DNA of 64,000 bases from an uncultured Chthoniobacterales bacterium. Its GTDB lineage: Bacteria; Verrucomicrobiota; Verrucomicrobiia; Chthoniobacterales; Terrimicrobiaceae. The position numbers were made by a program, and so were the translations under genes. The stretch is from NCBI GenBank assembly GCA_964445975.1, contig CAYUMP010000016.1:3679-67678 (forward strand). The letters are read 5' to 3'. Below the pieces are notes generated by a model. That model saw nothing but the letters and a program-made list of their open reading frames with translations. It ran no database searches and had not been told where the DNA came from. This document shows positions 231 through 19,663 of this stretch, piece after piece. The stretch's first letter is position 1, and each line of letters opens with the position of its first letter.

Positions 231-1337
231 TCAGTGAAGGTCAGCCAGGGGAACTGCAACCACGGCCGGAGTGCGTGTGGCCGGACGGACTTCTCCCGAG
301 ATGAGAACGGCCATGTTTTGCCAAATCACAGCAGGGGCAGCCACCATGGGCTCCGGGCCGGGGCTGGAAGGCAAATCGGGATTCGGCTTGCGGTCGCACG
401 GAAGCGGCGGGCCTTCCTTCCAAGTGTTTTGGGCAGGTGAATAAATCAACGTTTCTCGTTCAAAGCCGGGGTGGTCTTTTTGCGCGCCAGCGAAGACGAA
501 GCCATAGCCCCCGGCCACGAGAATGCGGCCATCGGGCAGCAACGGACATGGAGTCGCCGCACCAACACGAGCGAAGGGGAGGTCTTCCAGCTGGGTCCAG
601 GCACGGGTGACGGGGTCGTAGCGATAGGCGTTGTCAAGCGGTACGGGGCGGGCCTTTCCGTCGTCGGAGGGCAAGTAGTGCATGCCGCCAAAGACATAGA
701 AATGGCTGCCATCGCTTGCCGCCGCCATCACGTTACCCAGTTTGCCGGGGAAATCCGCGACCTTGGTCCATGCGGAGGATTGACCCGAGGAGAGCGGCAA
801 AGCCCAACACTCCCTGCCGGGTTGAGTAGAGCCTGCATCCGGCACTCCCCCGATCACATAGAACACATCCTTCACGATCGCGGCCGCACCGTAGACGATC
901 GGATGAGGCAGTGATGGCAGGGTGGTGACTTTCAACACCCCCTCTTGCAGACCGATGCGGTAAACATCCTTCAGCGAGCCGGTACCGTTCATGCCACCGG
1001 CGGAGATCACGTCCGATCCATAAGGCGCGCTGGCGGAGTGGGCAATTTCCTGAGGCAGTTTCTCCTTCAATTCTGTCCAGGGGCCTTCCGGACTCTTCAG
1101 CACAAAAACCTTGTCGCTATAAGCCTTGGTCCCGCCATTCCATATCGGCTTGTCGATGAAGCGGCTACCTCCGCCGGTGAAAAGCACGCCATCGGACACA
1201 CCGGCAAACATTCCACCGAAGCCTACGGGATCTGGCAGGGGCGGCAGGGTTTTCCAGGAAGTGGCGGGCGAGACGGCGGTGGCGGTCATAATGGTAAAAA
1301 GAAAGACGGCAATCGCACGGCAGGCCGGTCCCATCAT
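231..1337 (-). CDS. Kelch-repeat beta-propeller protein, exported (NanM/YjhT mutarotase-like)
   Basis: ORF 231..1394, trimmed to ATG 1337 (MMGPACRAIAVFLFTIMTATA, hydrophobic leader), which forms an ATGA overlap with the MFS stop. Repeated blade motifs: VLFTGGG, VISAGGM, FYVIGG, FYVFGG, ILVAGGY. Confidence 0.7.
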   Translation of the reverse strand: MMGPACRAIAVFLFTIMTATAVSPATSWKTLPPLPDPVGFGGMFAGVSDGVLFTGGGSRFIDKPIWNGGTKAYSDKVFVLKSPEGPWTELKEKLPQEIAHSASAPYGSDVISAGGMNGTGSLKDVYRIGLQEGVLKVTTLPSLPHPIVYGAAAIVKDVFYVIGGVPDAGSTQPGRECWALPLSSGQSSAWTKVADFPGKLGNVMAAASDGSHFYVFGGMHYLPSDDGKARPVPLDNAYRYDPVTRAWTQLEDLPFARVGAATPCPLLPDGRILVAGGYGFVFAGAQKDHPGFERETLIYSPAQNTWKEGPPLPCDRKPNPDLPSSPGPEPMVAAPAVIWQNMAVLISGEVRPATRTPAVVAVPLADLH

Positions 1338-2605
1338 GGTTGAGATGAGCCGGGGAATTTCACCGGTTTGATAAAGATCAATAATACCGCGCATATGATG
1401 AGTCCAACAGCGGACGCCTCAAAGACATAGCGGACATTGACATTGGCATCACGCAAAACTCCACCGAGCCAGATGGTGAGTCCGCCGATGACGCATGAGA
1501 AGAGATTCAAGATGCCAAAGCCCGTGGCCCGATAGCGGGAGTCGCAAACCATGCAGAGAATCGGCATTGTGTTGCCGTCCGTGCAGGCGCGGGCGAAGCC
1601 GAAAACGAGCAGGCCGGCGATGGCGCCAAAGAAGACCTCCGTATTGGCCGTAAAGAAAATCGCCGGAGCGGCCACACACATGCCGAGCACTGCGACGAAC
1701 AGGCGCCCGCGTTCATGAGAGCGGCTCCAGCGGTCGGCCAGGGCTCCGCCCAGCACGAAGCCTGCGAGAGTCGAAATTTGCAGATAGCCAGTGGCAGCCA
1801 ACCCGGCTTGCCCCTGGGACAGATGGAACTGCTGCTGCAAGTAAGTCGGCATCCAGCCAATGATGCCCCACCCGGCAAAACCCATCAGGCCCCAATGAGC
1901 CAGCAACTTCAAAAATGAGGCCTGCCCGAACAAGCTTTTTACGGCGGTGAAAAAGCGGACACTCCCGGCAGACTTTTCCTCAATGGTTTTCCCGGACGAT
2001 GGCGCGTCGCGCAGGAGGAAAATCAAAACACAGGAATAGACAATGCCAATGACGCCAAACAGATGAAAGGCGTAAGCCCAGCCATGCCGCTCAGCCAGCC
2101 AACCGCCCATGCCGCCCAAGCCGGAACCGATGCTGACGCCGCACAAATGAATGCCGGTCGCCAACGAGCGGGTGGAACCGCGATGATAATCCGTGATCAA
2201 AGCGAGCGCGGCCGGCAGGTAGCACGCTTCGCTCAGGCCCATGATGGCCCGGGTGGCCAGCAATTGCTCGAAGGTGACGGCATGGCTCGTCAGCCAGGTC
2301 GTAACGGACCAGAGAAACAAGCTGCCGACAATGATCTTGGACCGGCTGAATCGGTCGGAAAGAAAGCCGGCTACCGGGCTGAGAAGACCGTAGACCCACA
2401 AGAACACTGACGTCAGCAGCCCAAAATCGCCATCGGTCATCGGGATGGCGGCCTTCACCGAATCCCGCATCGTGGTAAGCATGATGCGGTCGAGATAGTT
2501 CAGACAGGCGACCACGCAGAGCAGCGCGACGATAAGCCAGGCCCGCGGGGGAAGACCTGCCACTGTGGACGAGCTTTGCTCGTCTGATGTCGTGGGGAGA
2601 CTCAT
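1334..2605 (-). CDS. MFS transporter (sugar-acid/anion symporter type)
   Basis: 423 aa and polytopic. MFS loop motif GFLSDRFSRSK follows TM2. Sits between the dehydratase-like and Kelch genes on the same strand. Confidence 0.85.
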   Translation of the reverse strand: MSLPTTSDEQSSSTVAGLPPRAWLIVALLCVVACLNYLDRIMLTTMRDSVKAAIPMTDGDFGLLTSVFLWVYGLLSPVAGFLSDRFSRSKIIVGSLFLWSVTTWLTSHAVTFEQLLATRAIMGLSEACYLPAALALITDYHRGSTRSLATGIHLCGVSIGSGLGGMGGWLAERHGWAYAFHLFGVIGIVYSCVLIFLLRDAPSSGKTIEEKSAGSVRFFTAVKSLFGQASFLKLLAHWGLMGFAGWGIIGWMPTYLQQQFHLSQGQAGLAATGYLQISTLAGFVLGGALADRWSRSHERGRLFVAVLGMCVAAPAIFFTANTEVFFGAIAGLLVFGFARACTDGNTMPILCMVCDSRYRATGFGILNLFSCVIGGLTIWLGGVLRDANVNVRYVFEASAVGLIICAVLLIFIKPVKFPGSSQP

Positions 2606-2611
2606 GGCGAA

Positions 2612-3859
2612 CTAGGTGCGAAGGACCTTGCCCTTCACGGAGTTGAATTCGCCCGTGCCCGGCTGGTAGGGATATTTGTTAATGACCTCCTCAGGGAGCT
2701 TCACATTCAGGCCAGGAACATCCGGGAGGTAAACACGGCCGTCCTTCAATATCGGTGGCTCCACCCAAAGATCGGAGAGCAGGGGCGAGAAGAAGTGCGT
2801 GTTTTTCGAACGATCCGAAGGATTGAAAGCGGCCATCTCGACGATCTTCGTCGCCCGTGAAGCCATGGCGGCGTGCAGATTGCCCATGGCGCCGACGCCG
2901 GAGGTCCATGAATGGGTGGCGACGGGGATGCCCTGAAGTTCGCACAAGTGGGCGATCTTTACAAAATTGGTCAGGCCGCCCATGAAGGCCGCATCGAGTT
3001 GCGCAAGGTCGAAGGGTTCCTCCTCCATCCAGTCGCGCCATTCTTCCACGCTGGTCAGACATTCGCCTCCAGCCACGGTCAGGCGTGTGCGGCCACGCAG
3101 GCTGCGGTAAGCGGACTTGTCGGTATAGGGCAACGGCTCCTCGAAAAATTCGATGGGATAGTCGGCCAGCGCTTCCAGGACGTAGGCCGCCGTGGGGAGA
3201 TCCCAGATATGGTCGCGCTCGGTCATATTATCCATATGGCCATCCATCATGAGGCGAAAATCTTTGCCAAAGCGCTGGCAGAGCCACTCGACTTTTGTCA
3301 CCTCGATATCCGCCGCCTCCTTGGCGGTGCGGCCGCGATAAAAAGGCTGACCCTGCTCGTGAATGCCGCCACCGAGTTTCACGGCGGGAAAGCCGACGGA
3401 GAGATACTGCGCGACCTTGGCTTCGAGTTTTTCCTTGGGCCAGTTCGATGCTCCACCGGTGGCATAGCAGTCGAAGGATTCATGGCACTTGCCTCCCAAC
3501 AACTCGTAGACGGGCACACCCAGAGCCTTGCCCTTCAAATCGTAGAGGGCCATCTCCAAACCGCTCAACACGATGGAGCCCAACCCGACCCGGCTCCAGA
3601 ATTTCCCGGCGAGAAACATGCGGGCGTAAAGCGTGTCGATTTCCAGCGGGTCGGCGCCTTCAAGAATCGGCGCGTAAAACTCCACGACCGCTGGGACAAT
3701 CTCCGGAACGAAATAGCCGGCGTAGGTCTCGCCGAGACCCACATGCTCGGTATCCGTTTCCAAAACAATGAAAGCCGCCGAGCGCATCGTCCGGGACCGG
3801 AAGTGTTCATCCTGATGGGGCGCCGAGCACAAAACCGTGCGGACTTTGGTGATTTTCAT
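2612..3859 (-). CDS. enolase-superfamily enzyme (mandelate racemase/muconate lactonizing family, acid-sugar dehydratase-like)
   Basis: 415 aa. N-terminal capping-domain pattern LETDTEHVGLGETY...ALYDLKGKALGVPVYELLGGK. Barrel metal-ligand-like positions MMDGH, FFEEP, AGGE. Confidence 0.85.
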   Translation of the reverse strand: MKITKVRTVLCSAPHQDEHFRSRTMRSAAFIVLETDTEHVGLGETYAGYFVPEIVPAVVEFYAPILEGADPLEIDTLYARMFLAGKFWSRVGLGSIVLSGLEMALYDLKGKALGVPVYELLGGKCHESFDCYATGGASNWPKEKLEAKVAQYLSVGFPAVKLGGGIHEQGQPFYRGRTAKEAADIEVTKVEWLCQRFGKDFRLMMDGHMDNMTERDHIWDLPTAAYVLEALADYPIEFFEEPLPYTDKSAYRSLRGRTRLTVAGGECLTSVEEWRDWMEEEPFDLAQLDAAFMGGLTNFVKIAHLCELQGIPVATHSWTSGVGAMGNLHAAMASRATKIVEMAAFNPSDRSKNTHFFSPLLSDLWVEPPILKDGRVYLPDVPGLNVKLPEEVINKYPYQPGTGEFNSVKGKVLRT

Positions 3860-3908
3860 GAATGATACTGATCTCTAGTGGGAGGGCATGAGCGATGGCA
3901 AGAGAATT

Positions 3909-3930
3909 TGCATTCGCATGCATGCATATA
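3909..3930 (-). promoter_or_regulatory. copy 1 of 22-bp ATGCAT-rich motif (reads TATATGCATGCATGCGAATGCA on the minus strand)
   Basis: Lies in the 103-nt gap upstream of the dehydratase-MFS-Kelch unit, 50 nt before ATG 3859. Used as the reference copy for the other three. Confidence 0.45.
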
Positions 3931-3962: not shown

Positions 3963-6900
3963 TCACTCGCTAACAGTTTCGAGGAGTTCGGAAACCACTT
4001 CCCCGGTGTAGCGGTCGATAGCGACGTGAAGCCAGTAGCGACGTTCGCCTTCGACCATGAAGTCGTCGATCGACTTTGGGCTTTTGGGGAATCGTCCGGT
4101 CTGGGCGACGAGGTCGATGAGGAAATTCCAGGTTCGGGTCTGGGTGGTGCCGGTGAGGGCACGGATGAGACTTTCCCGTTGCGTTTTGATGGCAAAGGAG
4201 GATTCGCCGCCAGCTCCCTTGCCAAGTTCCGCATCGGTGAGATTGGTCGGGGTGGAAAATTCGGTGACAAAGTCGGAGATGTTTTTCACGGGGCCGACGG
4301 TGCTGAGGTAGTTGCGAATACGATTGGCGGCGGCCAAAGCCTCGCCTTCGGTGAGCACGCTGGTAGGGGTCTTTTCCTCTTTGACGGAATCGATGAGTAG
4401 CGCCTTGAGGACATCGGCACTGGCCGAATTGGGATTCACCCGGCCTTCGATGGTTTCCGTGTCATCGATACTGAAGACATCCAGCAGAGAGGCGTCCGCG
4501 CTGTCGGTACTAGAGAAATTCAAGGAGCGCCAGGGGACGTCGCGATAGACGTAACCGAGATCGGCTACGGAACTGAAAGGACGGTCGAGGACGACAGGGC
4601 GGGAGCTATTCGTGCCAGCGGGGCGAGAACCACTGGGAGGCCAAGCGGTGTGGGTTGAATATTGCGCATGAATAGGCTCCATGGGATTTGGAATGTTATC
4701 ACCGGGGGCGAAGCCGCCGTCGCCCTGGCGATACTCACCATCGGGATCTTGCGCCCTAGTGGCAGCAATAGTGTTCTCCCATAACAAGCCCAGGAAATAA
4801 CTTGAACTACCTGCCGGGCTATATCCGTTACTCGGAGTTCCGTCCGTGGTCGCCACGCCATAGGGGGTGCCTTGACGGCCAAACTTGTCAAATCGCGGAC
4901 GAATACTATAGGGAGCGGTATTATTCGGCGCAAAGGTGCTTTCATAAAACTGAATTAAGCTTCCCGTCGGATTGGTAGTGGCTGTCGCGGGGGTTGGAAT
5001 CGTCTTGGTCGGCCGAAAATTCAGTCCAAAATAGCCAAGGCGATTGGTTCGCGGATCACCATGCGCAAAGCTGGTACTGCCGGCAATTCTGGGTGCGGCG
5101 TACATCGAAGCGTTATTTACCTCCGACATTTTTAAAAACGAAACATTCGTTTCTAAGGTTTTTTGATAAGTTCTTGGCACCCCATCTTTATCAATGACTG
5201 CGAGCTCAACAGAAATGGGACGCACGATATCGAATCGAGCAGAATTCGGACACCACCAGTAGGGAGCCGGATGCCCAGCCGTTTTTTTGTTGTAGTTGAA
5301 ATCCGGCAGGGGTTGGCGATCAAAACGGACGTGGGACGGTTCCGAGAAATAGTTGAAATTGCACCAGGTCTGAGCAGGAAACTGCTGGCCGGCTGAAATC
5401 GTTCTCGTGGTATCTAGGTTGCTTGTCCCTCCAGCGCCCGTGAGGGTTTCGGCTGGCGTCTCTGCGTTATAGGAGTCATACATTGTGACGCTAGTTGCAC
5501 CGCTAATGGCCAGTTTGATCTCGGGATTGTAGTCGCTCGCAGTGGGCAGGTGTTGAAAATTAGGATTCCAGAGTTCAGCGGAAACCCGGAATCCATATTT
5601 GTCGATTTCCCCCGGGGTGTTATTTCCTGTGACTTTATCATTTTTAAAATTTTCGCGCCCGATTGTCATATTATCCGCCTCGACTCCGGCCTTGACGGGC
5701 ACGTTCTCGCCCAGAAAGGAAATCTTATTTACATAAGGCAGGTTTTCCACGCCGTAGAGCGTTCCGCCATTCCACGCAATCGTCGTCGGAATGGGAATGC
5801 GTCCGGCGGCATTGGTATCGGGATCGAGATCGTATTGATCGATGATGTTTGCACCGATTTGCATGATATGAGTGTCTTTGTCCGAATTGTCCGCAACCAT
5901 GGCCGTAGTACCCGCGCTCTGCCCTATCGAGCCGGCCTCTATGGCGGCTTTTAGTATCTCAAAAAAATCAAGTTCTCGGTATTCCGACTCGGCCGCTATC
6001 TGGGCAGCGGTTTTTATGGTGGATGCCTTATAGGTAAACGAACGGGAACCTTGGATGTAGGTCAGCCCGAAGTATTTCGCGACGTCCTGCGCGAGAGCGA
6101 TATCTCCTGGATTTTGTGCTAGGTCGGAAATGAGTTTCAATCGGCTGAGCGGAAAGCGCTTTTCAAAAAGCAGACGGCCTGTGATGGCGTGACGCAGAGT
6201 GACAAACGATGGATTGGTCGACGATTCCACCGCAGTCGGTGGTTGGTAAGTCGGAGCGTTTTTTTCCCGGGAGAAAACGCTGAGGAAATTCAACTTGTCG
6301 TCGAAGCCGCTGCGCTTGGCGAAGCGAATCAGTTCCTGACGAGACAGGAAGCGATTATCGCCAGCCTCTGTCTTGGTGAAACCCTTGTGATCTCCTTTTT
6401 CAAGATACTGTTTGTAGAGCGCAGGAGTACTGGCATTGTGCGCATTGCGGAAAGAAACAACTTGGGCCGCCTCCGTGTCGGAAAGACCGACACCTTGGAG
6501 CTTGACGAGACCGGGTGAGCCTTTCTTGACCACATCAACGGCAGGGAGAGATGCCGGATAGCCCGCCACGTTCATGTCCAGCAGGCCGCTGATGTCATAG
6601 ATGGCAAAAGCGATGCGTCCGAGAACAAACCCCGCCTTAGTCGGATCGGAGGCGTCAGCCAAGGACAGCGACATCACAGGCCCTTTCCGGTCCAAGTAAA
6701 TCCAATCGGGGGTCTTTACGGTGGTCCCGTCAAATTGCCCGAGCGCGGATTTATTCCAGCGTAGTGCGCTAATCGAACGACCATTGCGCGAAGGCGTGGA
6801 AGACGATGCGGCCGAACCTTTGAGAGTGGCACCGGCACCAGTGAAAAGCGTCGTATTATTTTTGCTAACCTTCAGGAGATTGCCCAGCGGGTCGGCTGCG

Positions 6901-7229
6901 ATCTTTTCAGGGACCATATACTTGCGGTCGGTAGGCACATAGATGACAGGGCCTTTTTCCTGCGGGTCTCTGTTGGTGGTTGAGCGCGTTTCATCCGCGA
7001 TTTCCTTGCGCAGTTCCCCGATAACGAGTTCAAGTCCGCCGGCACCGAGTTCTTCCGCCTTCATCGAGTTAGTGAAGGCGGAGGTACTGGCGCGATCATT
7101 CGTGGCCAGTGAGAAGAAAACTACGATCAAAAAGCTGAGAGTCAGAACGGCAAAAAGCACGAGGACCAACGAAAGGCCGGACTCCTTTTTGACCGCGGAA
7201 ATTTCAAACCTTGGTTTCGTCTTTTTCAT
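3963..7229 (-). CDS. giant GspK/PilX-like minor pseudopilin-family protein (recalled as 'Verru_Chthon cassette protein A' type)
   Basis: ORF 3963..7307, trimmed to ATG 7229 (MKKTKPRF...), 8 nt after the upstream gene stop. One N-terminal TM segment, GLSLVLVLFAVLTLSFLIVVFF. The C-terminal 160 aa carry GspK-like signatures: GRVNPNSASADVLKALL (nt 4395-4445) and the ending RYWLHVAIDRYTGEVV. Confidence 0.6.
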   Translation of the reverse strand: MKKTKPRFEISAVKKESGLSLVLVLFAVLTLSFLIVVFFSLATNDRASTSAFTNSMKAEELGAGGLELVIGELRKEIADETRSTTNRDPQEKGPVIYVPTDRKYMVPEKIAADPLGNLLKVSKNNTTLFTGAGATLKGSAASSSTPSRNGRSISALRWNKSALGQFDGTTVKTPDWIYLDRKGPVMSLSLADASDPTKAGFVLGRIAFAIYDISGLLDMNVAGYPASLPAVDVVKKGSPGLVKLQGVGLSDTEAAQVVSFRNAHNASTPALYKQYLEKGDHKGFTKTEAGDNRFLSRQELIRFAKRSGFDDKLNFLSVFSREKNAPTYQPPTAVESSTNPSFVTLRHAITGRLLFEKRFPLSRLKLISDLAQNPGDIALAQDVAKYFGLTYIQGSRSFTYKASTIKTAAQIAAESEYRELDFFEILKAAIEAGSIGQSAGTTAMVADNSDKDTHIMQIGANIIDQYDLDPDTNAAGRIPIPTTIAWNGGTLYGVENLPYVNKISFLGENVPVKAGVEADNMTIGRENFKNDKVTGNNTPGEIDKYGFRVSAELWNPNFQHLPTASDYNPEIKLAISGATSVTMYDSYNAETPAETLTGAGGTSNLDTTRTISAGQQFPAQTWCNFNYFSEPSHVRFDRQPLPDFNYNKKTAGHPAPYWWCPNSARFDIVRPISVELAVIDKDGVPRTYQKTLETNVSFLKMSEVNNASMYAAPRIAGSTSFAHGDPRTNRLGYFGLNFRPTKTIPTPATATTNPTGSLIQFYESTFAPNNTAPYSIRPRFDKFGRQGTPYGVATTDGTPSNGYSPAGSSSYFLGLLWENTIAATRAQDPDGEYRQGDGGFAPGDNIPNPMEPIHAQYSTHTAWPPSGSRPAGTNSSRPVVLDRPFSSVADLGYVYRDVPWRSLNFSSTDSADASLLDVFSIDDTETIEGRVNPNSASADVLKALLIDSVKEEKTPTSVLTEGEALAAANRIRNYLSTVGPVKNISDFVTEFSTPTNLTDAELGKGAGGESSFAIKTQRESLIRALTGTTQTRTWNFLIDLVAQTGRFPKSPKSIDDFMVEGERRYWLHVAIDRYTGEVVSELLETVSE

Positions 7230-7237
7230 GGCGGCGG

Positions 7238-8104
7238 TTAACGCAAGGGAACAACGCGTTCGACGGTCGTAATGCCGTTGCGGAAACGTTGAGGTATGGC
7301 CCCCCAAATGGCAGGTTGGTTTAATTTTTCATCCCACAAGGCGGACAGGGAAACATTCGAATCCTCCGGTGTCTGCAGATAGGAATCGGTCATGAAATTT
7401 TGGCGAAAGGTGCCAAGCAAAGCGGGATTGCCGCGAATGACGGACTCAGTCCTTTCGTCGAGGAAAAGGAGGGTGATCACCGCCGCCTTGGACTGGGCCT
7501 TATCCTGATCGGAATTGTTGTAGCGGAGATAGTATTTCCCGTCATCGGCGAGGAAGCGCAGTTCCATGCGAATCACGCCTTTGAGAATGGGCTCAAATAC
7601 GCCCCCGGCATCGGTGGCGACTCGATAACCCTCGGCCACGGAATCCTTCGCGAATGGCATGGGGTCGGTGAGTGCATTGACGGCGGGATAGGTGCCGATT
7701 GCGTCCCACTGGACATTGATCGCTCCCCGCCAGAGAGCGAAGCCGGCGGCTGCGTCATCCTTGGCCTGGTATGCGACGAGGGAAAGTTGACGGAAATCGC
7801 GGGAATCGCTCCCCATGGGAGTCGTCCCGCCACGCCTGGTAAAAAAAACGAGCGCCGGATTATCAAAACCGTCCTGAAAGGGCGTAATATCCGAACGATA
7901 GAGACCCTGGCTCAAGTCGCGGGCAAGCAGATCCATGGCGGCGCGAGCCTTGGAATGAATCTCAAAGAAGCGCCGGCCCTGTCCCACGACATCCATGGTG
8001 GAGCCGATGATTTGATTGAGCAGCAAGACCAGCACGCAGAGCACCGCGGCGGCCACCAGTACCTCCAGCAGCGAGAAGCCCCGGGATGACCGCGCATGCC
8101 TCAT
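7238..8104 (-). CDS. prepilin-type N-terminal cleavage/methylation domain protein (GspJ-like; 'cassette protein C' type)
   Basis: N-terminus M(M)RHARSSRG/FSLLEVLVAAAVLCVLVLLL is a class III signal. ATG 8104 shares one base with the upstream TGA (TGATG). The track start at 8107 is a GTG. Confidence 0.75.
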   Translation of the reverse strand: MRHARSSRGFSLLEVLVAAAVLCVLVLLLNQIIGSTMDVVGQGRRFFEIHSKARAAMDLLARDLSQGLYRSDITPFQDGFDNPALVFFTRRGGTTPMGSDSRDFRQLSLVAYQAKDDAAAGFALWRGAINVQWDAIGTYPAVNALTDPMPFAKDSVAEGYRVATDAGGVFEPILKGVIRMELRFLADDGKYYLRYNNSDQDKAQSKAAVITLLFLDERTESVIRGNPALLGTFRQNFMTDSYLQTPEDSNVSLSALWDEKLNQPAIWGAIPQRFRNGITTVERVVPLR

Positions 8105-8571
8105 CACTTATACCGAATGTAGGTGGTGGTTTCGTAATTCTCCTCGGCCTTGGGGATCGCCTGATAATTTCCGCTGCTCTGCGGCGGATGCACCAGCGCG
8201 ACAAACACACGGGCTATCCCTTCATTCGAGGGTACGATCTCGTAAAACAGCGAGTAGTAGGCCTGAGAGCCACTCGAAGCCACCCGGCCCGAACGATCCA
8301 ACAAGGCGGTTTGCAGTCCGGCGGGACTGTTGGTCAGAGGCGGCAGCGGATGAGTTGCCGGCATGGTGGCCAGGGGGGCCGCCCGGCGTTCGGCTAAGAG
8401 GGAAGAGGCAACCTGAGCCGCAAAGAGTTCGGTCTTGGCTTGGCGAGCCACCTTGAGGCCGGAGGAGAGCAGGCCGCATAACGCGACGAGAGCAAAGACC
8501 ACCACGCCCAAGGCAATCATGACTTCGATCAGGGAAAAACCCTTTCGAGCCACCGACGATTTTCGGGCCAT
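8104..8571 (-). CDS. prepilin-type N-terminal cleavage/methylation domain protein (GspI-like; 'cassette protein B' type)
   Basis: ORF 8104..8649, trimmed to ATG 8571, giving MARKSSVARKG/FSLIEVMIALGVVVFALVAL. This is a short leader followed by the G/F-S-L-I-E motif. Confidence 0.75.
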   Translation of the reverse strand: MARKSSVARKGFSLIEVMIALGVVVFALVALCGLLSSGLKVARQAKTELFAAQVASSLLAERRAAPLATMPATHPLPPLTNSPAGLQTALLDRSGRVASSGSQAYYSLFYEIVPSNEGIARVFVALVHPPQSSGNYQAIPKAEENYETTTYIRYK

Positions 8572-8636
8572 AAAAACAGGCGAATATACAAATGCGGATG
8601 CCCATTTCCCGCATTTCCTCTTAACTAAGCCCTCAT

Positions 8637-8658
8637 TGCATGTATGCATGCGAATGCA
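8637..8658 (+). promoter_or_regulatory. copy 2 of 22-bp motif (TGCATGTATGCATGCGAATGCA, 19/22)
   Basis: Lies in the gap between the aldo-keto reductase stop (8712) and the pseudopilin B/C/A unit. 8652-8661 is a perfect palindrome, GAATGCATTC. Another GAATGCA sits at 8682-8688. Confidence 0.45.
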
Positions 8659-8711
8659 TTCAATTTATGTATTCACTATGTGAATGCAAGAAAAAGCTGC
8701 AGCCGAATAAA

Positions 8712-9653
8712 TTATTTTGCGTTTTCCGAAGCCTTCTCGGCCTTGCTGGGCCAGGTAGGCGGATCAATGAGCCAGCCGGGGACGGCGGGGTCAAAAGCCT
8801 CGATGCGGGCAAGAATTTCCGCATCGAGAGGAGGCTGGTTGAGCAACGCAAGATTTTGCCGGAGCTGGGTACGGTTTTCCATGCCCATCACCACCGAATC
8901 GATATCGGCGCGGCTGAGCATGGCCCGGGCCAGAAGATGAGGCAGAGGCAAATCATACTCCGTGGCCAGTTGCTGAAAAAACGTCCGGGCAGGAATGACC
9001 CCCTTGAGATGCTCGGGCGTATTTTCATCGCTCATCAGCAGGAGCCCCTGCAAATAACAGCTCCGAGCAAAAACCATGGCTCCCCGCTCCCTGGCCCGCC
9101 GCGTGGTTCCTCCATGCGTAAAGCGGCGATCCAAAACATTGGCCGGAATTTGAATGCCTCCCAGAAACGGGTTTTCCAGAAACGGCTCTGCACGTTCAAC
9201 TGAACCCATCGAGACCCCGCACTTTTCGATCAACCCCGCTTCCTGACATTTCGCCAACGCATCCAGGTAGGCGGGCTGGTCGTCGCGATGCAGCAGCACC
9301 AATGGAAGCGATTCCACGCGCAAACGCTGCAAGGATCTTTCCACACTTTGACGGGTTTGTTCTTCCGCTTCTTGGGTCGACAAACCCGGGTTCATCGGGG
9401 CGACTTTGCTGACGATATAAAAAGAATCCCGGAGACCGATTTCAGCGAGGGCCTTGCCCAAAACCTCCTCGCTTTCACCATAGGCTGCCGCAGTGTCCAG
9501 GCAATTGATGCCGGCGGCGGCCGCCTCCTCTAACATGGCGCAAATCTCGGAAAAGGCGGGAGTGCCCGCTTTGTTGGCGACTCCGTAGGCCAGCCCGAAC
9601 TGGACTGTACCCAGCATCAGAGCCGACGGTTGAATGGAATTGGCAATACTCAT
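8712..9653 (-). CDS. aldo/keto reductase
   Basis: 313 aa. N-terminal pattern LGTVQFGLAYGVANKAG...INCLDTAAAYGESEEVLGKAL is typical of AKR family oxidoreductases. Confidence 0.85.
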   Translation of the reverse strand: MSIANSIQPSALMLGTVQFGLAYGVANKAGTPAFSEICAMLEEAAAAGINCLDTAAAYGESEEVLGKALAEIGLRDSFYIVSKVAPMNPGLSTQEAEEQTRQSVERSLQRLRVESLPLVLLHRDDQPAYLDALAKCQEAGLIEKCGVSMGSVERAEPFLENPFLGGIQIPANVLDRRFTHGGTTRRARERGAMVFARSCYLQGLLLMSDENTPEHLKGVIPARTFFQQLATEYDLPLPHLLARAMLSRADIDSVVMGMENRTQLRQNLALLNQPPLDAEILARIEAFDPAVPGWLIDPPTWPSKAEKASENAK

Positions 9654-9805
9654 GGCGCTACTTTGCCGTATATTCCCCGCCGATGAAAAGATTGGTGCCT
9701 CGAATATCTTTCGAGAGCCCCGAAGTGGACAAAACCTGCTGAATTTTTCCTTCCAGAGAGAAGCGATTTAAGATTTTTTGAGGCATCGTGTTGAGAGATC
9801 ACTGA

Positions 9806-9864
9806 TGCACTACATGCATCTGCATTCACGCAGCAATGCAAAATCTCCTTAAAGTCTTGCATTC
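9806..9864. promoter_or_regulatory. cluster of five TGCA(T) cores, including two TGCATTC heptamers, in a divergent promoter region
   Basis: The 246-nt AKR/GntR divergent gap contains TGCA at 9806, ATGCAT at 9814, TGCATTC at 9821, TGCA at 9837 and TGCATTC at 9858. These share half-sites with the 22-bp motif. Confidence 0.35.
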
Positions 9865-9899
9865 TGCTACATACAGGTAAATGTGTATTTCGTGTTGAA

Positions 9900-10631
9900 A
9901 TGAGAAATCCGAATACAACCAAGGCATATGACTACCTGAGAAAGCGCATTCTCGGAGGAGACCTTCAGCCTGGGGCCTTTCTTTCAGCGCAGAGTATTTC
10001 CAAGGACATTGGTGTGAGCCGCACCCCGGTAAGGGAAGCGCTACGGCAGCTCGAATATGACGAACTGGTGACCATCGTCCCCAAACTGGGAGCAGTGGTG
10101 AAAACACTGAACCGGGATCAATTTCAGGATTTGCTGGGCTATCGCCAGGCCTTGGAGACCCATACGGCCGGAAAGGCCGCGGAACTACGCCGTCCGGAGG
10201 AGGTCGAGCAACTCAAAACGATCCTCGAAGGCATGCGAGAGCAAACCAACATTCTGGTGCAAAATCCGCGGGATGTTGATGCTCTCAGGCTTTTGGGGGA
10301 TTTTGATGTGCGTTTCCATCGTTTGCTTTTCGCGATGGCCCGCAATTCCCTCATCCGTGAAAAATTTGAGCGCGCACACATCCTCCAACGCATGCTGACC
10401 CTTACGCTCATCGAACAACAACTTCCGGAAGATGACGCCTTGAAGGAAAACGTGATGACCGTCTTTGAAGAGCACACGAATATTTACGAAGCCATCCGAG
10501 ACGGAGATGTCAGTAAGGCTCAAAACACCATGGGCAAGCACATGAGCAGCTTTGCGGCAAAAGCTTCCAAGCGCAGCCGGGCGGCCGCGGGTGAGAACTA
10601 TCCGCAAAGTTCGGTGGAAGTACTGATGTAG
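9900..10631 (+). CDS. GntR-family transcriptional regulator (FadR/FCD subfamily)
   Basis: N-terminal winged-HTH pattern: LRKRILGGDLQPGAFLSAQSISKDIGVSRTPVREALRQLEYDELV. The C-terminal region is helical and FCD-like. 243 aa. Confidence 0.85.
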   Translation: MRNPNTTKAYDYLRKRILGGDLQPGAFLSAQSISKDIGVSRTPVREALRQLEYDELVTIVPKLGAVVKTLNRDQFQDLLGYRQALETHTAGKAAELRRPEEVEQLKTILEGMREQTNILVQNPRDVDALRLLGDFDVRFHRLLFAMARNSLIREKFERAHILQRMLTLTLIEQQLPEDDALKENVMTVFEEHTNIYEAIRDGDVSKAQNTMGKHMSSFAAKASKRSRAAAGENYPQSSVEVLM

Positions 10632-10645
10632 CCTTCCTGAGCGGC

Positions 10646-11281
10646 TTAATTCGAGCCGCTCGTAAACCGGACAAACCCGGTCGGACCGTTCACGGCGAAG
10701 GAGTCCCTGACGTCCTTCATATGCCCCTCGATGGCCGATGTATTAAAGGCGATATTGCCCTGAACGCCGCTGCCGATCTTGGCTTCCCCGCTGGGTGAAA
10801 ACTGTACGCTGCGTGAGAGATCCACTTCCTTCGAACCCGTACGGACCTTGAACCTTGCCGTGGCGGCCAGGGAACTCGCCGAAGTTAAGTCAAAGTCACC
10901 CAGGGTCAGAATTTTGGTCACCGGGATAAACTCGGCATTGCTTGGCACATCGAAGGTCCGCGCTGCCCAAAGATCTTCGGGGCCATAACCCTGAGCCAAG
11001 CCGTTGCGCGAGGCCACGACACAAGCATAAAGCGGGCGACCGTTCATGGCGTTTTCGCTGAAAGCCACCCAAACGTATGTGTTTTTGGCGACGGCGTACT
11101 GGCGGGCGCCCTCAAAAAGCGAGGAAACATCCGTGAGGTATTTCGTGCGGCGGGAGGAAGCAGCCATATTCCCCAAAGCGGGAATGGTGGCGGTGGCAAG
11201 AATGCCAATCAATGCAACAACACTTAACAGCTCAATAAGTGAAAATCCTTGGAGGCGATATTTTTCGCCAAGTATATGCAT
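10646..11281 (-). CDS. prepilin-type N-terminal cleavage/methylation domain protein (GspH/FimT-like; 'cassette protein D' type)
   Basis: ORF 10646..11431, trimmed to ATG 11281, giving MHILGEKYRLQG/FSLIELLSVVALIGILATATIPAL. An upstream in-frame Met is possible. Confidence 0.7.
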   Translation of the reverse strand: MHILGEKYRLQGFSLIELLSVVALIGILATATIPALGNMAASSRRTKYLTDVSSLFEGARQYAVAKNTYVWVAFSENAMNGRPLYACVVASRNGLAQGYGPEDLWAARTFDVPSNAEFIPVTKILTLGDFDLTSASSLAATARFKVRTGSKEVDLSRSVQFSPSGEAKIGSGVQGNIAFNTSAIEGHMKDVRDSFAVNGPTGFVRFTSGSN

Positions 11282-11294
11282 GCATGCGGATTCT
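11273..11294 (+). promoter_or_regulatory. copy 3 of 22-bp motif (TATATGCATGCATGCGGATTCT, 19/22)
   Basis: The first 16 nt are the exact reverse complement of 3915-3930. The copy overlies the predicted start codon (11281-11279) of the GspH-like gene. Confidence 0.45.
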
Positions 11295-11524
11295 TTTGCG
11301 TGCAGTTTTGATCGACACAAACGAGCGGACTGATGCGCTGATTTCATGGAAGGGTCTGGGGGACAGTTGAATATATATGGTGATCTCATGTCCTGAGCAA
11401 GTTGTAAAAGAGTTCGCCTTTTACTAAGCAAAATTCATGCCAACGCGTTTTACAGAGAAAAATGACCTTTTTGCCCGCTCAATGATTTTGGAAATTTCCG
11501 GCTTGTTTTTGGAGAGATAGAACG

Positions 11525-11546
11525 TATATGTATGCATGAGTATGCA
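11525..11546 (+). promoter_or_regulatory. copy 4 of 22-bp motif (TATATGTATGCATGAGTATGCA, 19/22)
   Basis: Overlies ATG 11536 of the Gfo/Idh/MocA gene, at the far end of the same divergent gap as copy 3. Confidence 0.45.
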
Positions 11547-12516
11547 GTTAGGCTTGGATCAAGTAGGTCAAAAAAAGGAGGTCACAACACCCCCTTTTCG
11601 GCTGGCAATGCTGGGCATGATTTCCGGCAACGGCCATCCGTATTCCTGGTCCGCGATTGTCAATGGATTTGAGGCTAACGAATTGGATGCATGCCCCTAT
11701 CCCATCATCGTCGATTATCTTTCCCGACAACTCGACGCGGGGATGGAACATGCGGCGGTGACACATATCTGGAGCGACAATCCTGCCGATGCGGCCCAAG
11801 TCGCCCGATTCGCCAAGATTCCCCATGTCGTGGAGGCGCCACAGGATGTGATCGGTGAAGTCGACGCAGTGATCATTGCGGTGGACGATGGCGACGATCA
11901 CGTGGAGCGCGCCCGGCCTTTTGTCGAAGCAGGTCTGCCGGTGCTGGTGGACAAACCGCTCGCCACCAATGTGGAGGACCTGCGGACTTTCGTTTCCTGG
12001 CGCCGCAGTGGAGCCCAGATACTTTCATCCAGCGGCATGCGCTATGCCTCCGAATTGAACGACCTGAAGGGCATCTCTTGGGATTGGATGTCCGTGGTGT
12101 TGTCCAATTCCTGGAAGCGTTATGGCATTCATTTTCTGGAGCCCGTGTACACCCTCACCGGTCCAGGCTACCTCAGCATCCGCTCCTTTGAAGAGGGGCC
12201 CAATCAGTACGTCAGCCTGCGCCACAGCTCTGGCCAGTTGCTGACGCTTTCGTTTCTTCGGGAGGTCAAACTTCCCTTTGGGACCTTCCATGTGAGCGGT
12301 AAAGACGGGCAGAAGGCCTTCCATTTGCACGATACGTACGGGGCGTTCCGCCGACAGCTGCTAGCCTTTGTCGACTACGCCATGACCGGGCACGAGCCGT
12401 ATCCATTTTCCGAAACCATCGAGTTGATGGTGATCATCCTGGCCGGGATTGAAAGCACCCGCCGCAATGGGGCTGAGATCAACCTGAGCGAATTCCAAAA
12501 AAATCTAGCGTTATGA
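11536..12516 (+). CDS. Gfo/Idh/MocA-family oxidoreductase
   Basis: 326 aa. N-terminal Rossmann strand-loop FRLAMLGMISGNGHPYSW. Mid-region AVIIAVDDGDDHVERARPFVEAGLPVLVDKPLA is typical of the family. Confidence 0.7.
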   Translation: MSMQLGLDQVGQKKEVTTPPFRLAMLGMISGNGHPYSWSAIVNGFEANELDACPYPIIVDYLSRQLDAGMEHAAVTHIWSDNPADAAQVARFAKIPHVVEAPQDVIGEVDAVIIAVDDGDDHVERARPFVEAGLPVLVDKPLATNVEDLRTFVSWRRSGAQILSSSGMRYASELNDLKGISWDWMSVVLSNSWKRYGIHFLEPVYTLTGPGYLSIRSFEEGPNQYVSLRHSSGQLLTLSFLREVKLPFGTFHVSGKDGQKAFHLHDTYGAFRRQLLAFVDYAMTGHEPYPFSETIELMVIILAGIESTRRNGAEINLSEFQKNLAL

Positions 12517-13376
12517 AACTGCGAAAAAGCCGAGTCTTGAAAGAAACCCATCAAGGGATGGTAGCCACCTGTGCAAAAATCAACCTGAGCGATCCCCGCG
12601 TAATCGAACTATGCGGTCTCGCCGGCTACTCGACGGTCTGGCTCTGCCTGGAACACGTCCCAAACGACTGGAGCGTGATCGAAAATTGCGTGCGGGCGGC
12701 CAAAGCATACGACATGGACGTGATTGTCCGCGTGTCCCGTGGCTCGTACAGCGACTATATCCGCCCCTTCGAATGCGATGCAACGGGGGTGATGATCCCT
12801 CATGTGGAATCGGCCGAACAGGCGCGAGAAATCGTGGATTTCTGCCGCTTCAATCCTTTGGGACGCCGGGCCCTCGATGGCGGCAATGCAGATGGCGCCT
12901 ACTGCCAGGTGCCGCTGCAGGAGTACCTGCATCACGCCAATACCGAACGGTTTTTAATCCTGCAAATCGAATCCCCGGAGGCTCTGGAGAATGTCGAGGA
13001 AATCGCGGCGGTTCCAGGTTTTGAATACTTGCTCTTTGGCGCAGGCGACTATGCCCATCGCATCGGCAAAGCCGGCCAATACACCTGCCCGGAAGTGGAA
13101 AGCGCCCGCCGCCGCGTAGAAGCCGCCGCCCTGGCCAATGGCAAGCGCTGCGTGGGAGTGGGAATCATGCTAGAGGCTCCTTTGTTGAAGCAGCGCGGAT
13201 ATTCCGTCATCAATCTCGCGTCGGATGTCGTCGGGCTCGGCGGTTACCTCGCCAGCCAGCTTACGTCGCTTGAGCAGGAACCGACACTGCCCCCCGCCGC
13301 CTCGCTGTACTCCAACGGCAATGGTTCCAATGGCAACGGCCACAAGGCCGACGATTCCATGGTGCTGACGAAATAA
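12513..13376 (+). CDS. HpcH/HpaI-family aldolase (2-keto-3-deoxy acid-sugar aldolase-like)
   Basis: ATGA overlap with the upstream gene. Family-like pattern IELCGLAGYSTVWLCLEHVPNDW...VIVRVS...GVMIPHVESAEQAREIV...ILQIESPEALENVEEIAAVPG. Confidence 0.8.
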   Translation: MKLRKSRVLKETHQGMVATCAKINLSDPRVIELCGLAGYSTVWLCLEHVPNDWSVIENCVRAAKAYDMDVIVRVSRGSYSDYIRPFECDATGVMIPHVESAEQAREIVDFCRFNPLGRRALDGGNADGAYCQVPLQEYLHHANTERFLILQIESPEALENVEEIAAVPGFEYLLFGAGDYAHRIGKAGQYTCPEVESARRRVEAAALANGKRCVGVGIMLEAPLLKQRGYSVINLASDVVGLGGYLASQLTSLEQEPTLPPAASLYSNGNGSNGNGHKADDSMVLTK

Positions 13377-13400
13377 CTTCTCCCGCCATGCGAAAAAAAA

Positions 13401-13431
13401 CAACGGCCTCCTCGTAGCGAGGAGGCCGTTG
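13401..13431. terminator. bidirectional rho-independent terminator between the aldolase gene and recA
   Basis: Perfect 13-bp stem, CAACGGCCTCCTC / GAGGAGGCCGTTG, with a 5-nt loop. Flanked by A8 (13393-13400) and T6 (13432-13437). Confidence 0.85.
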
Positions 13432-13455
13432 TTTTTTCGGAACCGGGCTGAAGCT

Positions 13456-14493
13456 TTATTTCTTCTCGGCGTTTAAAAGCGCCTGCACTTCCTGGGTGAT
13501 TTGCTCGTACAATGCGGCGTCGTTCTTCAAAACCTCTTTTGCTGCATCACGGCCTTGCGCCACCTGGTTGCCTTTATAGCTTAGCCAGGAACCACGTTTT
13601 TCCAAAACGCCTTTTTCCAAGGCCAGATCCAGGAGGGAACCGGTGCTAGAGATTCCTTCATTATACATGATATCAAATTCCGCCTCGGTGAAGGGCGCCG
13701 CCACCTTGTTCTTCACCATCTTAATGCGGGTCCGGTTGCCGGTCACGGTGCCGTCACTGGTCTTGATCGCACCAATACGACGGATATCCACGCGCACGCT
13801 GGCATAGAACTTGAGCGCCTTGCCGCCAGGAGTCGTTTCGGGATTGCCAAACATCACACCGATCTTCTCGCGAATTTGGTTGGTAAAAATCACCACGGTG
13901 CGGGCTTTGGAAATGAAGGCCGTGAGTTTGCGCAGCGCATTGCTCATCAGGCGGGCCTGAGCGCCGACCACTGCATCGCCGATCTCGCCTTCCAGTTCGG
14001 ACTTCGTCACCAACGCGGCCACGGAATCCAGTACGATCACATCGAGTGCATTGGAGCGCACCAGGGTCTCGCAAATGCGCAGAGCCTCTTCGCCCGAACT
14101 GGGCTGCGAGACGAGCAGGTCATCGAGATTTACGCCCAATTTCCGGGCATAAGCGGGATCAAGAGCATGCTCGACATCGATGAAACCAGCCAGACCGCCC
14201 AGCCTTTGCGCCTGAGCCACGGCCGTGAGAGTCAAAGTCGTTTTGCCGGAGCTTTCCGGGCCATAAATCTCCACGATGCGGCCGCGGGGAAAGCCGCCTA
14301 CGCCCAAGGCACGATCAATGAGAATGTTCCCAGTAGGGATGGTTTCCACCTCGGAGGTGGAGTTATCACCGAGACGGCGAATAGCTTCGCTGCCATAATC
14401 TTTTTCGATCTGCTGGATGGCGAGATCCAGGTTTTTGGCACGCTGCGCAGCGGCCTTTTCATCAACGGAGGATACAACTTCTTCTTTTGCCAT
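13456..14493 (-). CDS. recA: recombinase RecA
   Basis: ORF trimmed to ATG 14493 (MAKEEVV...). Walker [16 protein letters not shown]. Classic RecA core: [28 protein letters not shown]. Confidence 0.97.
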
Positions 14494-14543
14494 GGTCACC
14501 TTGGAATTAAACGGGATTGGCCGGAATGACAAGTGGCCAAAAA

Positions 14544-14574
14544 GAAGAAAGCCCGCCAAAAGGCGGGCTTCTTC
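14544..14574 (-). terminator. rho-independent terminator after rpsD
   Basis: GCCCGCC/GGCGGGC core stem extended by GAAG/CTTC with one bulge, AAAA loop. On the minus strand it is followed by a T-rich tract. Confidence 0.6.
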
Positions 14575-14598
14575 ATTACGGGTGGGGAAACCGTTGAA

Positions 14599-15210
14599 CT
14601 AACGCGAATACAATTCGACCACGAGCTGCTCGTTGACGATCGGATTGATGTCGCTGCGGCTCGGGATGCGAGTGACGCTGCCAGTCAGATTCTCTTTGTC
14701 CACCACGAGCCAATCCGGCGTGCCGGCGGCGGCGGTCTGGTCGATCGCCTTCTGGGCGAGACGCTTGGAGCGCTCATTGAGCTTGATGGCGATTTTATCG
14801 CCAACCTTGAGGTTCATCGAGGAAGCATTGGTCTTGCGGCCATTCACGGATACATGTCCGTGGGAGACCATCTGACGAGCACCGCGCAGGGTTTTGGCAA
14901 AGCCCATCTTCTGCACGACGTTGTCGAGGCGGGTCTCCAGGAGCTGGAGCAGGATTTCACCCGTAACACCACGCTTGCTCGCGGCGAGCGCGAAGTAGCG
15001 ACGGAACTGGCGCTCAAGCACGCCATATTGGAACCGGAGCTTCTGCTTCTCGGCCAACGCGATCGCGTAGTCAGAGAGTTTGCGGCGAGAACCCTTCGGG
15101 CCATGCTGGCCGGGAGGGTAATTCTTGTTTTCGAACGCTTTGGGCGAACCGTGAATAAGCACGCCATAGCGGCGGCTGACTTTAGTTTTGGGGCCAGTGT
15201 AACGAGCCAT
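14599..15210 (-). CDS. rpsD: 30S ribosomal protein S4 (uS4)
   Basis: N-terminus MARYTGPKTKVSRRYG; 203 aa; follows S11 as in the alpha operon. Confidence 0.97.
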   Translation of the reverse strand: MARYTGPKTKVSRRYGVLIHGSPKAFENKNYPPGQHGPKGSRRKLSDYAIALAEKQKLRFQYGVLERQFRRYFALAASKRGVTGEILLQLLETRLDNVVQKMGFAKTLRGARQMVSHGHVSVNGRKTNASSMNLKVGDKIAIKLNERSKRLAQKAIDQTAAAGTPDWLVVDKENLTGSVTRIPSRSDINPIVNEQLVVELYSR

Positions 15211-15245
15211 CGGTCAGTAAATAATAAGTGGTGGAGTTGCGGGGA

Positions 15246-15941
15246 TCAGACGCGACGCTGTTTAGGCGGGCGGCAGCCGTTGTGCGGGACGGGGGTTACG
15301 TCGCGGATGATGGAGATTTCCAGACCGATGGCCTGCATGGCACGGACGGCGGATTCGCGACCGGCACCGGGGCCCTTGACGCGAACTTCGACTTCCTTGA
15401 GGCCGTGACCCATGGCTTGCTTGCAAGCGTCCTGGGCGACCATCTGGGCGGCGTAGGCGGTGGATTTACGAGATCCCTTGAATCCACATTTGCCGGCGCT
15501 GGACCATCCGATCAGCGCACCACGCAGATCAGTGATGCTGATGATGGTGTTGTTGAAGCTGGCCTGAACGTGGGCGATGCCTTGGATGACGTTCTTGCTG
15601 CCTTTGGCCTTGACGACCTTGAGCGGTTCGATGGTGTCATCGAGAGAGATGCTGATAGGAGCGGCCGGAGCAGCTTCTTTCTTTTCGTCCTTCTTGGGCT
15701 TTTTGGCGGCCTTGGGCTTGGCTGGGGCGGCTGGAGCTGCAGCGCCTTCAGCAGCGGGAGCTGCAGGGGCTTCGGCGGCAGGAGCGGCCACAGCTTCAGC
15801 GGCGGGAGCAGTCGTGGCCTCGGCGGTCGGGGCAGCAACGGCTTCGGTCGCTTCGGCGGCCTTTTTCTTGGGAGCCGGCTTTTTGGCGGGCTTGGCTTCG
15901 GCCTCGGGAGTAGCCGGGGTCTGGTTGGTTTCGTCAGACAT
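15246..15941 (-). CDS. rpsK: 30S ribosomal protein S11 (uS11) with an N-terminal Ala/Pro/Glu/Lys-rich extension of about 100 aa
   Basis: Core [18 protein letters not shown]...GWSSAG...[11 protein letters not shown] matches S11. ATG 15941 lies 7 nt after the S13 stop. No ATG, GTG or TTG lies just before the conserved core. Confidence 0.9.
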
Positions 15942-15948
15942 AGGTCAA

Positions 15949-16344: not shown

Positions 16345-16374
16345 ATGATTAGAGGATGATGAGTTGCGTGGGGA

Positions 16375-16488
16375 TTAGCCCTGTTTCTGTTTATGGCGCG
16401 GGTTTTTGCAGATCACGCGCACGACATTTTTACGCCGCACGATTTTGCAGCTTTCACATTGGCGTTTTACGGAGGCTCGGACTTTCAT
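16375..16488 (-). CDS. rpmJ: 50S ribosomal protein L36 (bL36)
   Basis: Absent from the ORF track because it is too short. Hand translation gives [37 protein letters not shown] plus TAA. ATGA overlap with the infA stop. Confidence 0.95.
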
Positions 16489-18120: not shown

Positions 18121-18124
18121 CTCC

Positions 18125-19630: not shown

Positions 19631-19663
19631 CGAGAGAAGAAGGGAAGGAGCGGGGAAGAAGAA

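Follow-up and report, generated by a model that had tools for sequence, protein, structure and literature searches.

We analyzed a 64,000-nucleotide stretch of DNA (hereafter the window; positions 3679-67678 of contig C16, CAYUMP010000016.1) from an uncultured Chthoniobacterales bacterium of the Terrimicrobiaceae, and within it a cassette of four genes whose products resemble the minor pilins of type IV filament tips. Contig C16 is 125.9 kb in full and belongs to a genome (G000) of 4.77 Mb in 50 contigs that is 98% complete. All four open reading frames named in a preliminary description of the window are present where it had placed them. They lie on the reverse strand and are called D, B, C, and A here in their 5' to 3' order. 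D (10646-11281; 211 residues) is a GspH/FimU-like prepilin that reads ...RLQG/FSLIELL at its N-terminus (slashes mark the predicted processing point). B (8104-8571; 155 residues; ...ARKG/FSLIEVM) is GspI/PilV-like, and C (7238-8104, or 8107 with an alternative start; 288 or 289 residues; ...SSRG/FSLLEVL) is GspJ/XcpW-like. A (3963-7229; 1088 residues) resembles a giant GspK/PilX-type cap subunit, begins with MKKTKPRFEISAVKKESG followed directly by LSLVLVLFAV (...ESG/LSLVLVL), and carries Leu, not Glu, at position +5. D, B, and C each score above the cut-offs of Pfam N_methyl and TIGR02532, and the N-terminus of A reads G/LSLVL, in agreement with the three class III signal peptides and the K-like protein lacking Glu5 that had been described.

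The order D-B-C-A is, as claimed, that of the tip complex genes of the type II secretion system (T2SS), but the cassette is not contiguous. Between D, which forms its own transcription unit, and B lie an aldo-keto reductase (AKR) gene (8712-9653, reverse strand; Pfam Aldo_ket_red, E = 8e-34) and a divergent gene for a GntR/FCD-family transcription regulator (9900-10631, forward strand; Pfam GntR and FCD). The stop of B overlaps the start of C, and the start of A is 8 nt past the stop of C. A second possible start of B, an ATG at 8649, would yield 181 residues; gene callers took this long form in two relatives, L001 and L003. Loci L001, L003, and L002 have A proteins that are 60%, 50%, and 43% identical, respectively, to that of the window. 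Among 80 loci from public genomes, 75 include upstream sequence, and ∼60 of these 75 have the order D-B-C-A, mostly with overlapping stops and starts. The cassette is therefore not a chance assembly of genes. A motif scan of contig C16 revealed no prepilins beyond D, B, and C. The locus has no separate PilY1/PilC-type adhesin or other large exported protein; the flanking genes encode a dehydratase, the AKR, the GntR regulator, and an oxidoreductase.

The proposed likeness to GspH, GspI, GspJ, and GspK differs in strength among the four proteins. For C, it extends to the fold. An AlphaFold model of C (predicted local distance difference test, pLDDT, of 84.7; predicted template modeling score, pTM, of 0.80) was compared to the PDB with Foldseek, and the only significant matches, the top 11, are all XcpW, the GspJ of Pseudomonas (E = 9e-7 to 1e-3, probability 1.00, template modeling score normalized to the target of 0.45-0.51). 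N-terminally truncated crystal chains are among these matches, which thus reflect the globular fold. Sequence models of GspJ match C at the N-terminus only and below cut-off. For D, the likeness is seen in the family. Nine of 46 members match Pfam GspH (PF12019; best E = 9.5e-6), but window D itself has no match at E ≤ 0.01, and its N-terminal matches to GspH, PilA_Myxo, and TIGR02596 are all below cut-off. We also considered D as a major pilin specific to the cassette, which is less likely given the GspH matches in its family. B is a candidate I-type subunit only by its position, size, and prepilin N-terminus. When profiles of B, C, and D were searched against PDB sequences, matches were confined to the N-terminal helix of full-length pilins.

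For A, the K-type assignment comes from its N-terminus, a hydrophobic segment like that of GspK. A profile of the A family aligns to one built from 18 ordinary GspK proteins of Verrucomicrobiota with 95% probability (hhalign, E = 3.6e-8), in only the N-terminal 61 columns (residues 9-69). The GspK model NF037980 (cut-off of 130 bits) matches 10 of 44 homologs of A, and the giant A paralogs match model positions 1-80 only, below cut-off. The predicted structure of A (pLDDT of 81, pTM of 0.84) has, from N- to C-terminus, a 60-residue pilin helix (19-78), a long mixed alpha/beta region, beta-rich segments (483-740), poorly predicted loops (741-866), a helical region, and three long terminal beta-strands. 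Conservation across the family is high at residues 1-510 and 880-1088, peaks at 881-920 and in the last 48 residues (1041-1088), and is low with many gaps at about 520-880. This pattern fits a K-type subunit in which a large head is inserted into the pilin core and the protein's own C-terminal strands close that core. Neither Pfam nor Foldseek comparisons to the PDB revealed a carbohydrate-binding module or lectin fold in A. Foldseek recovered scattered beta-sandwich proteins only, and a fold or lectin identity for A was dropped.

The cassette is a sister family of the Verru_Chthon cassette rather than a member of it. The preliminary description had named the Verru_Chthon families, and TIGR02600, TIGR02598, TIGR02599, and TIGR02596 do match A, B, C, and D, respectively. 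However, the matches cover the first 50-66 residues only and are far below the NCBIfam cut-offs (21.2 versus 332.3 bits for A, 27.3 versus 51.4 for B, 27.9 versus 256.5 for C, and 25.9 versus 70 for D). Across the A family, 26 of 44 homologs weakly match TIGR02600, with a best E of 6e-9 and none close to cut-off. No Pfam or NCBIfam model reaches its cut-off, which explains why the family, for which one scan gave at least 441 relatives, carries the annotation "hypothetical protein". A full-text literature search aimed at the cassette itself yielded no paper on it.

Several alternative copies per genome had been predicted, and genome G000 indeed has eight cassettes of this family, three true TIGR02600 copies, and three intermediates. 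Based on tblastn and profile searches, the eight are on contigs C16, C40 joined to the end of C3, C13, C3 (241-247 kb), C11, C38, C1, and C17. An assembly break divides the closest A paralog (47% identity) between the end of C40 (N-terminal half, 13474-15019) and the end of C3 (C-terminal half, 312595-314167). A conserved exported protein of ∼210-250 residues without a Pfam family is encoded downstream of A in seven of the eight cassettes (C11:18741-19439, C38:18185-18943, C13:63642-64391, C3:241747-242529, C3:311952-312620, C1:323926-324726, and C17:92522-93232). It is missing from the window cassette, L001, and L003, and is present in L002. Two of the true TIGR02600 genes are on C35 and one is on C6. 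Those on C35 belong to two cassettes in tandem (8000-28000) that are flanked by homologs of GntR/FCD, Gfo/Idh/MocA, NanM, two BNR_2, MFS_2, and short-chain dehydrogenase/reductase (SDR) genes. The canonical TIGR02600 family therefore shows the same kind of neighborhood as that described below for the window. A decayed copy is also present in the genome: C23:35498-36267 corresponds to model positions 1016-1293 of a TIGR02600-type A gene and has three in-frame stops.

The family is patchily distributed. A sample of 40 genomes from across the phylum gave no A-family match at E ≤ 1e-20, whereas 12 of 30 closer relatives have matches, with 1-11 matching segments each, a few of which are pieces of a single gene. 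At least 13 copies are present in one complete genome of the Chthoniobacteraceae. Among named relatives, the nearest to A belongs to the Terrimicrobiaceae, and all named homologs but one are from Verrucomicrobiota. The exception, L029 (JAWXBW010000001.1), is in a bin labeled Blastochloris sp., an alphaproteobacterium, and the contig is probably misbinned.

The cassette is an orphan with respect to filament machinery. The preliminary description found none in the 64 kb, and model searches of the whole genome extend this to the entire contig: C16 has no match to PF00437, PF00482, PF00263, or a prepilin peptidase model, and no linkage to gspG, gspE, gspF, or gspD. The suggestion in that description that the machinery is encoded elsewhere is correct as a gene inventory. 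Genome G000 has, all outside C16, six GspE/PilB-type and five PilT-type ATPases, five secretins, and five GspF/PilC platform genes, as well as a single prepilin peptidase gene (Peptidase_A24, C7:165879-166514) and about 60 prepilins. A region at C3 ∼260-276 kb resembles a locus for a type IVa pilus. PilT-type ATPases are found in G000 and in 30 of 31 relatives. Ordinary GspK is found in 7 of 13 cassette-carrying genomes and is not detectable in at least four near-complete ones. Co-occurrence consequently failed to tell a T2SS from a type IVa pilus as the partner, with PilT near-universal and ordinary GspK in about half of the carriers.

The genes around and within the cassette point to sugar catabolism. 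Downstream of A, an operon on the reverse strand (231-3859) encodes, according to Pfam, an MR/MLE-type sugar-acid dehydratase (2612-3859), a major facilitator superfamily (MFS) transporter (1334-2605), and a NanM/Kelch beta-propeller protein (231-1394). Upstream of D, a divergent operon on the forward strand (11536-13376) encodes a Gfo/Idh/MocA oxidoreductase and an HpcH/HpaI aldolase. Read from their family names, these genes and the reductase look like a nonphosphorylative sugar-acid pathway of the 6-deoxyhexose type. Cassette and sugar genes are interleaved in the same order in relatives at 43-61% identity. L001 has the same genes in the same order up to recA, with the dehydratase and MFS genes after A and with the AKR, GntR/FCD, and divergent oxidoreductase/aldolase operon also kept. 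L003 has the order AKR-B-C-A-dehydratase-MFS-NanM. In L002, D and a divergent GntR/FCD gene are followed by B-C-A and then by BNR_2 (sialidase-like) genes, an SSF transporter, NanM, and a GH28 gene. The GntR/FCD gene has an equivalent place in L001 and L002, and a paralog adjoins the C40 cassette. One difference is an SDR gene (adh_short) between the regulator and reductase of L001 (6827-7564); in the window, the gene is missing and only a 246-nt intergenic region is present (9654-9899). On its far side, this accessory locus abuts recA and ribosomal protein operons (13456-14559 and beyond), and the junction is kept in L001.

Sugar-type neighbors, which are carbohydrate-active enzymes, sugar transporters, and sugar-catabolic genes, are present at six of the seven other cassettes of G000. 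The split C40/C3 cassette has paralogous GntR/FCD, aldolase, and oxidoreductase genes, two BNR_2 genes, and NanM. Neighbors of the others are a SASA esterase (C13), a DHDPS-family lyase and NanM (C3, 241-247 kb), GDSL and ricin-lectin proteins (C11), GH106 and an esterase (C38), and MFS_2, GH2, and a GH65C-domain protein (C17); the C1 cassette has PATR/PEP-CTERM proteins only. In other genomes, cassette loci have genes of GH78, GH38, RhaT, GH35, GH39, CBM9, and CBM4_9, and regulators of the GntR-periplasmic-binding-protein or AraC type. In phmmer searches of G000 with seeds from sugar-related families, 46 of 163 matches are within 10 kb of a cassette, a space equal to 7.3% of the genome, though this count is inflated by 17 seeds that were taken from those same neighborhoods.

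A box, TGCAT-N4-ATGCA, is shared by the pilin and catabolic units. Exact copies occur six times in the 4.77-Mb genome, and three are in this 7.6-kb locus, all at gene starts. When degenerate copies are included, five places in the locus are marked. An exact box upstream of B (8640-8660) is just downstream of a promoter-like element, TTGCAT-N17-TAAAT, and is in the same place in L001 (8562) and L003 (1597). A second exact box, between the stop of A and the start of the dehydratase gene (3908-3930), is kept in L001 (13318) and recognizable in L003. The third covers the start of the Gfo/Idh/MocA oxidoreductase gene (11528-11548), with a counterpart in L001 at 5030. A degenerate box covers the start codon of D (11270-11296) and has counterparts before D in L001 and L002 (6875). 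In the divergent region between the AKR and GntR genes (9806-9881), two box-like sites accompany a conserved promoter-like stretch, and ∼70 nt are nearly identical in L001. The conserved TTGCAT-N17-TAAAT element accompanies the boxes upstream of both B and the regulator gene. A generic scan of the locus for sigma-70 promoters and terminators found fewer sites than in shuffled sequence and was not used.

Three more boxes are together on contig C1 (85506-88235; L018:1507-4235), before genes of a GDSL esterase, a PATR-repeat protein, and a BNR_2 protein. Two are between the PATR-repeat and GDSL esterase genes, and one is over the start of a BNR_2 (sialidase-like) gene. The BNR_2 and GDSL gene products look secreted, and their genes are probably a remote part of the same regulon, in which the BNR_2 protein is glycosidase-like. 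The ATG is inside or right after an ATGCAT-rich box in the long form of B, in D, in the oxidoreductase gene (window 8571-8649, 11279-11289, and 11533-11546, respectively), and in the C1 BNR_2 gene. This overlap suggests very short or absent leaders, or operators over the start. The boxes and the genes that they mark probably form one regulon, putatively governed by the GntR/FCD protein through the boxes. For this clade, the regulatory and syntenic evidence makes a good case for a link between cassette and sugar; for cassettes in general, the evidence is suggestive of one.

Based on these observations, we propose that the locus encodes a substrate-induced, interchangeable spare tip (initiation) complex of a type IV filament, which would be either the pseudopilus of a T2SS or a type IVa pilus, and give this interpretation a probability of about 0.6. 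D, B, and C would be the H-, I-, and J-type minor (pseudo)pilins and A the K-type cap, with a head of ∼800 residues and a variable middle. The single prepilin peptidase of the genome would cleave all four proteins. B and C would pair and recognize folded A, whose conserved C-terminal beta-strands are predicted to complete its own pilin sheet. Since A lacks Glu5, it would be apical, and D would join underneath. Filament assembly would then be primed by the B-C-A(-D) complex on an ATPase/platform/secretin machine from another part of the genome, and the head of A would come to lie at the filament tip. The cassette and the sugar-acid pathway (dehydratase, aldolase, two oxidoreductases, MFS transporter, and NanM-like protein) would form a local regulon. 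If the GntR/FCD regulator acts on the boxes, the tip would be made when the sugar is present. The eight paralogous cassettes may be alternative tips for other substrates. The shared motif and the interleaving of genes suggest a shared filament machine that is fitted with a sugar-specific tip.

Several results weigh against this proposal. The model of A has no significant fold match in the PDB, GspK included (nothing below E = 0.04), the A-family profile matches no PDB sequence, and residues 874-974 match residues 150-242 of a home-genome GspK only weakly (41%, E = 2.8e-4). The GspK stretch in this last match is the RPFxSV...G-x-(V/I)-N-x-N-T helix-hairpin-helix region. For B, the matches to PilV, XpsI, TIGR02598, and GspI are N-terminal only and all below cut-off, and its family profile has no globular match in the PDB and no Pfam family beyond N_methyl. 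Genome G000 has two apparently complete T2SS loci (C2 ∼100-110 kb and C10 ∼96-105 kb), each with its own ordinary GspK of 318 or 326 residues. The number of boxes in the 64-kb window, five versus 2.4 expected, was reached in 7 of 100 shuffles and is not significant by itself. The argument from the boxes therefore rests on their clustering, placement, and conservation. Because verrucomicrobial genomes are rich in carbohydrate genes, neighborhood alone is weak evidence. In phmmer searches with 28 seeds, the 80 foreign loci showed no overall excess of sugar genes (42 matches in 1.48 Mb versus 163 in the 4.77-Mb home genome), though the test is crude, too insensitive, and biased. Only regulators with GntR and periplasmic-binding domains stood out, with 12 matches versus nine in the whole home genome.

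These last points bear on whether the link to sugar is real. A true tip set could by coincidence lie where the genome is plastic and rich in carbohydrate genes, with no functional tie to sugars. Carbohydrate genes are common in these genomes, the foreign loci show no overall excess, and two of the eight G000 cassettes have few sugar genes nearby. We nonetheless regard coincidence as quite unlikely, given that D and B-C-A are split by a regulator in the same manner at 43-61% identity, that the same conserved box marks pilin and catabolic units, and that 46 of the 163 home-genome matches fall in the small share of G000 near cassettes. Even less probable, and in our view very unlikely, is that the proteins have no filament role and that their class III signal peptides serve only to hold a sugar-binding assembly at the surface or in the periplasm, with no pilus primed. 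There is a precedent in the bindosome of Sulfolobus, in which sugar-binding proteins have pilin-type signal peptides, and the locus to which the cassette is tied includes a sugar transporter. Conversely, C has a GspJ fold, the N-terminus of A is K-type and lacks Glu5, the C-terminal strand of A is conserved, the H-I-J-K order is that of filament tips, and no ABC-type binding-protein fold was seen.

Two other possibilities are special cases of the interchangeable tip complex. One, which we consider unlikely, is a cargo-selecting tip for one T2SS that replaces the resident GspH-K and exports the glycosidases and esterases of the regulon (BNR_2 and GDSL). C matches XcpW and the N-terminus of A matches GspK, both of which are T2SS proteins; there are two T2SS loci to receive such a tip; and the box also precedes genes of secreted-looking BNR_2 and GDSL proteins. 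A T2SS has moreover been proposed for the export of alginate lyase (PMC13274419). However, both T2SS loci already own a GspK, at least four near-complete cassette carriers have no detectable ordinary GspK, and the XcpW match may be biased because the PDB may hold no PilW structures. The occurrence of cassettes in genomes without ordinary GspK is more in keeping with the other special case, in which the cassette gives a retractile type IVa pilus a tip that binds glycans. The variable head of A would bind a polysaccharide or particle, and PilT retraction would reel it in. We consider this unlikely too, though slightly less so. PilT-type ATPases are in G000 and nearly all of its relatives, the middle of A is variable, and K-type subunits of Tad and competence pili have adhesin inserts in cis (PMC13533445). 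Yet no carbohydrate-binding module or lectin fold is detected in A, and no major pilin or PilY1 gene is linked to the cassette.

Parts of the proposed tip complex have counterparts in known systems. Like the Verru_Chthon cassette, the window cassette is a D-B-C-A set in Verrucomicrobiota with three prepilin-type genes, a K-like protein of >1000 residues, and many copies, and the Verru_Chthon model of the corresponding letter is among the best matches of each window protein. It differs in that these matches are N-terminal and far below cut-off and in that D is separated from B-C-A by a regulator and a reductase gene. With the GspH-I-J-K tip of the T2SS (XcpU-V-W-X; PDB 3CI0 and 5VTM), it shares gene order, prepilin N-termini, the J fold, a K subunit without Glu5, and the GspH matches in the D family. 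But A is ∼3.4 times the size of GspK, has a variable middle and no PDB fold match, and has no linked gspG, gspE, gspF, or gspD. In the type IVa pili of Myxococcus xanthus, several minor-pilin/PilY1 sets can serve one machine (PMC7541494, PMC8833165). There, too, several alternative tip sets are encoded away from the machine, and they prime one filament system under different conditions. Unlike those sets, of which there are three, G000 has eight sets, or 14 with the sister families, the cassette lacks PilY1 and has a large part built into the K subunit, and it is tied to sugar loci.

Large in-cis inserts of K-type subunits, and a role of the C-terminal strand in assembly, have been described for GspK, CpaL, and some competence-pilus K subunits (PMC13533445). 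As in A, CpaL of Tad pili and the large PilK homologs of competence pili have a minor-pilin core with a large insert, and a conserved strand at the C-terminus rejoins the pilin sheet. The insert of A is larger (∼800 residues) and belongs to a different class of filament, and the likeness is one of architecture. In Verruconatronum alginivorum, a pseudopilin gene is induced with an alginate cluster (PMC13274419). That genome likewise has a pilin-type gene in a glycan cluster, substrate-induced in that case, and dozens of paralogs. But its gene encodes a single PulG-like pseudopilin with measured induction, whereas the set here is of the H-I-J-K type and has a giant cap. The TIGRFAMs cassette, alternative tip sets, K subunits with inserts, and a pseudopilin co-induced with a glycan cluster are thus already known in outline. 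What is new is the status of the cassette as a sister family, its split architecture with an internal regulator, and a conserved box that links the pilin genes with catabolic and glycosidase-like ones.

Where and when a type IV filament starts, and what it touches, is determined by its tip complex. In soil, water, and the gut, complex glycans are degraded to a major extent by Verrucomicrobiota. Here, a whole tip set with a threefold enlarged cap, present in many versions per genome, appears to be under sugar-specific control. If the link is real, it would offer a testable handle on how Verrucomicrobiota meet their substrates. To the filament field, the family offers a natural collection of K subunits that carry very large heads in cis. 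A further possibility, broad and as yet improbable, is that Verrucomicrobiota have a library of sugar-inducible, interchangeable tips, one per glycan-utilization locus, in which the head of the giant K subunit recognizes polysaccharide or enzymes and a shared pilus or pseudopilus machine acts as the front end for capture or export. To our knowledge, Verrucomicrobiota are without SusC/D systems. If the library exists, its pilus-based tips would parallel SusD and the surface-glycan-binding proteins of Bacteroidota, and they could be a mechanism of "selfish" polysaccharide uptake in bacteria of the Planctomycetota-Verrucomicrobiota-Chlamydiota (PVC) group.

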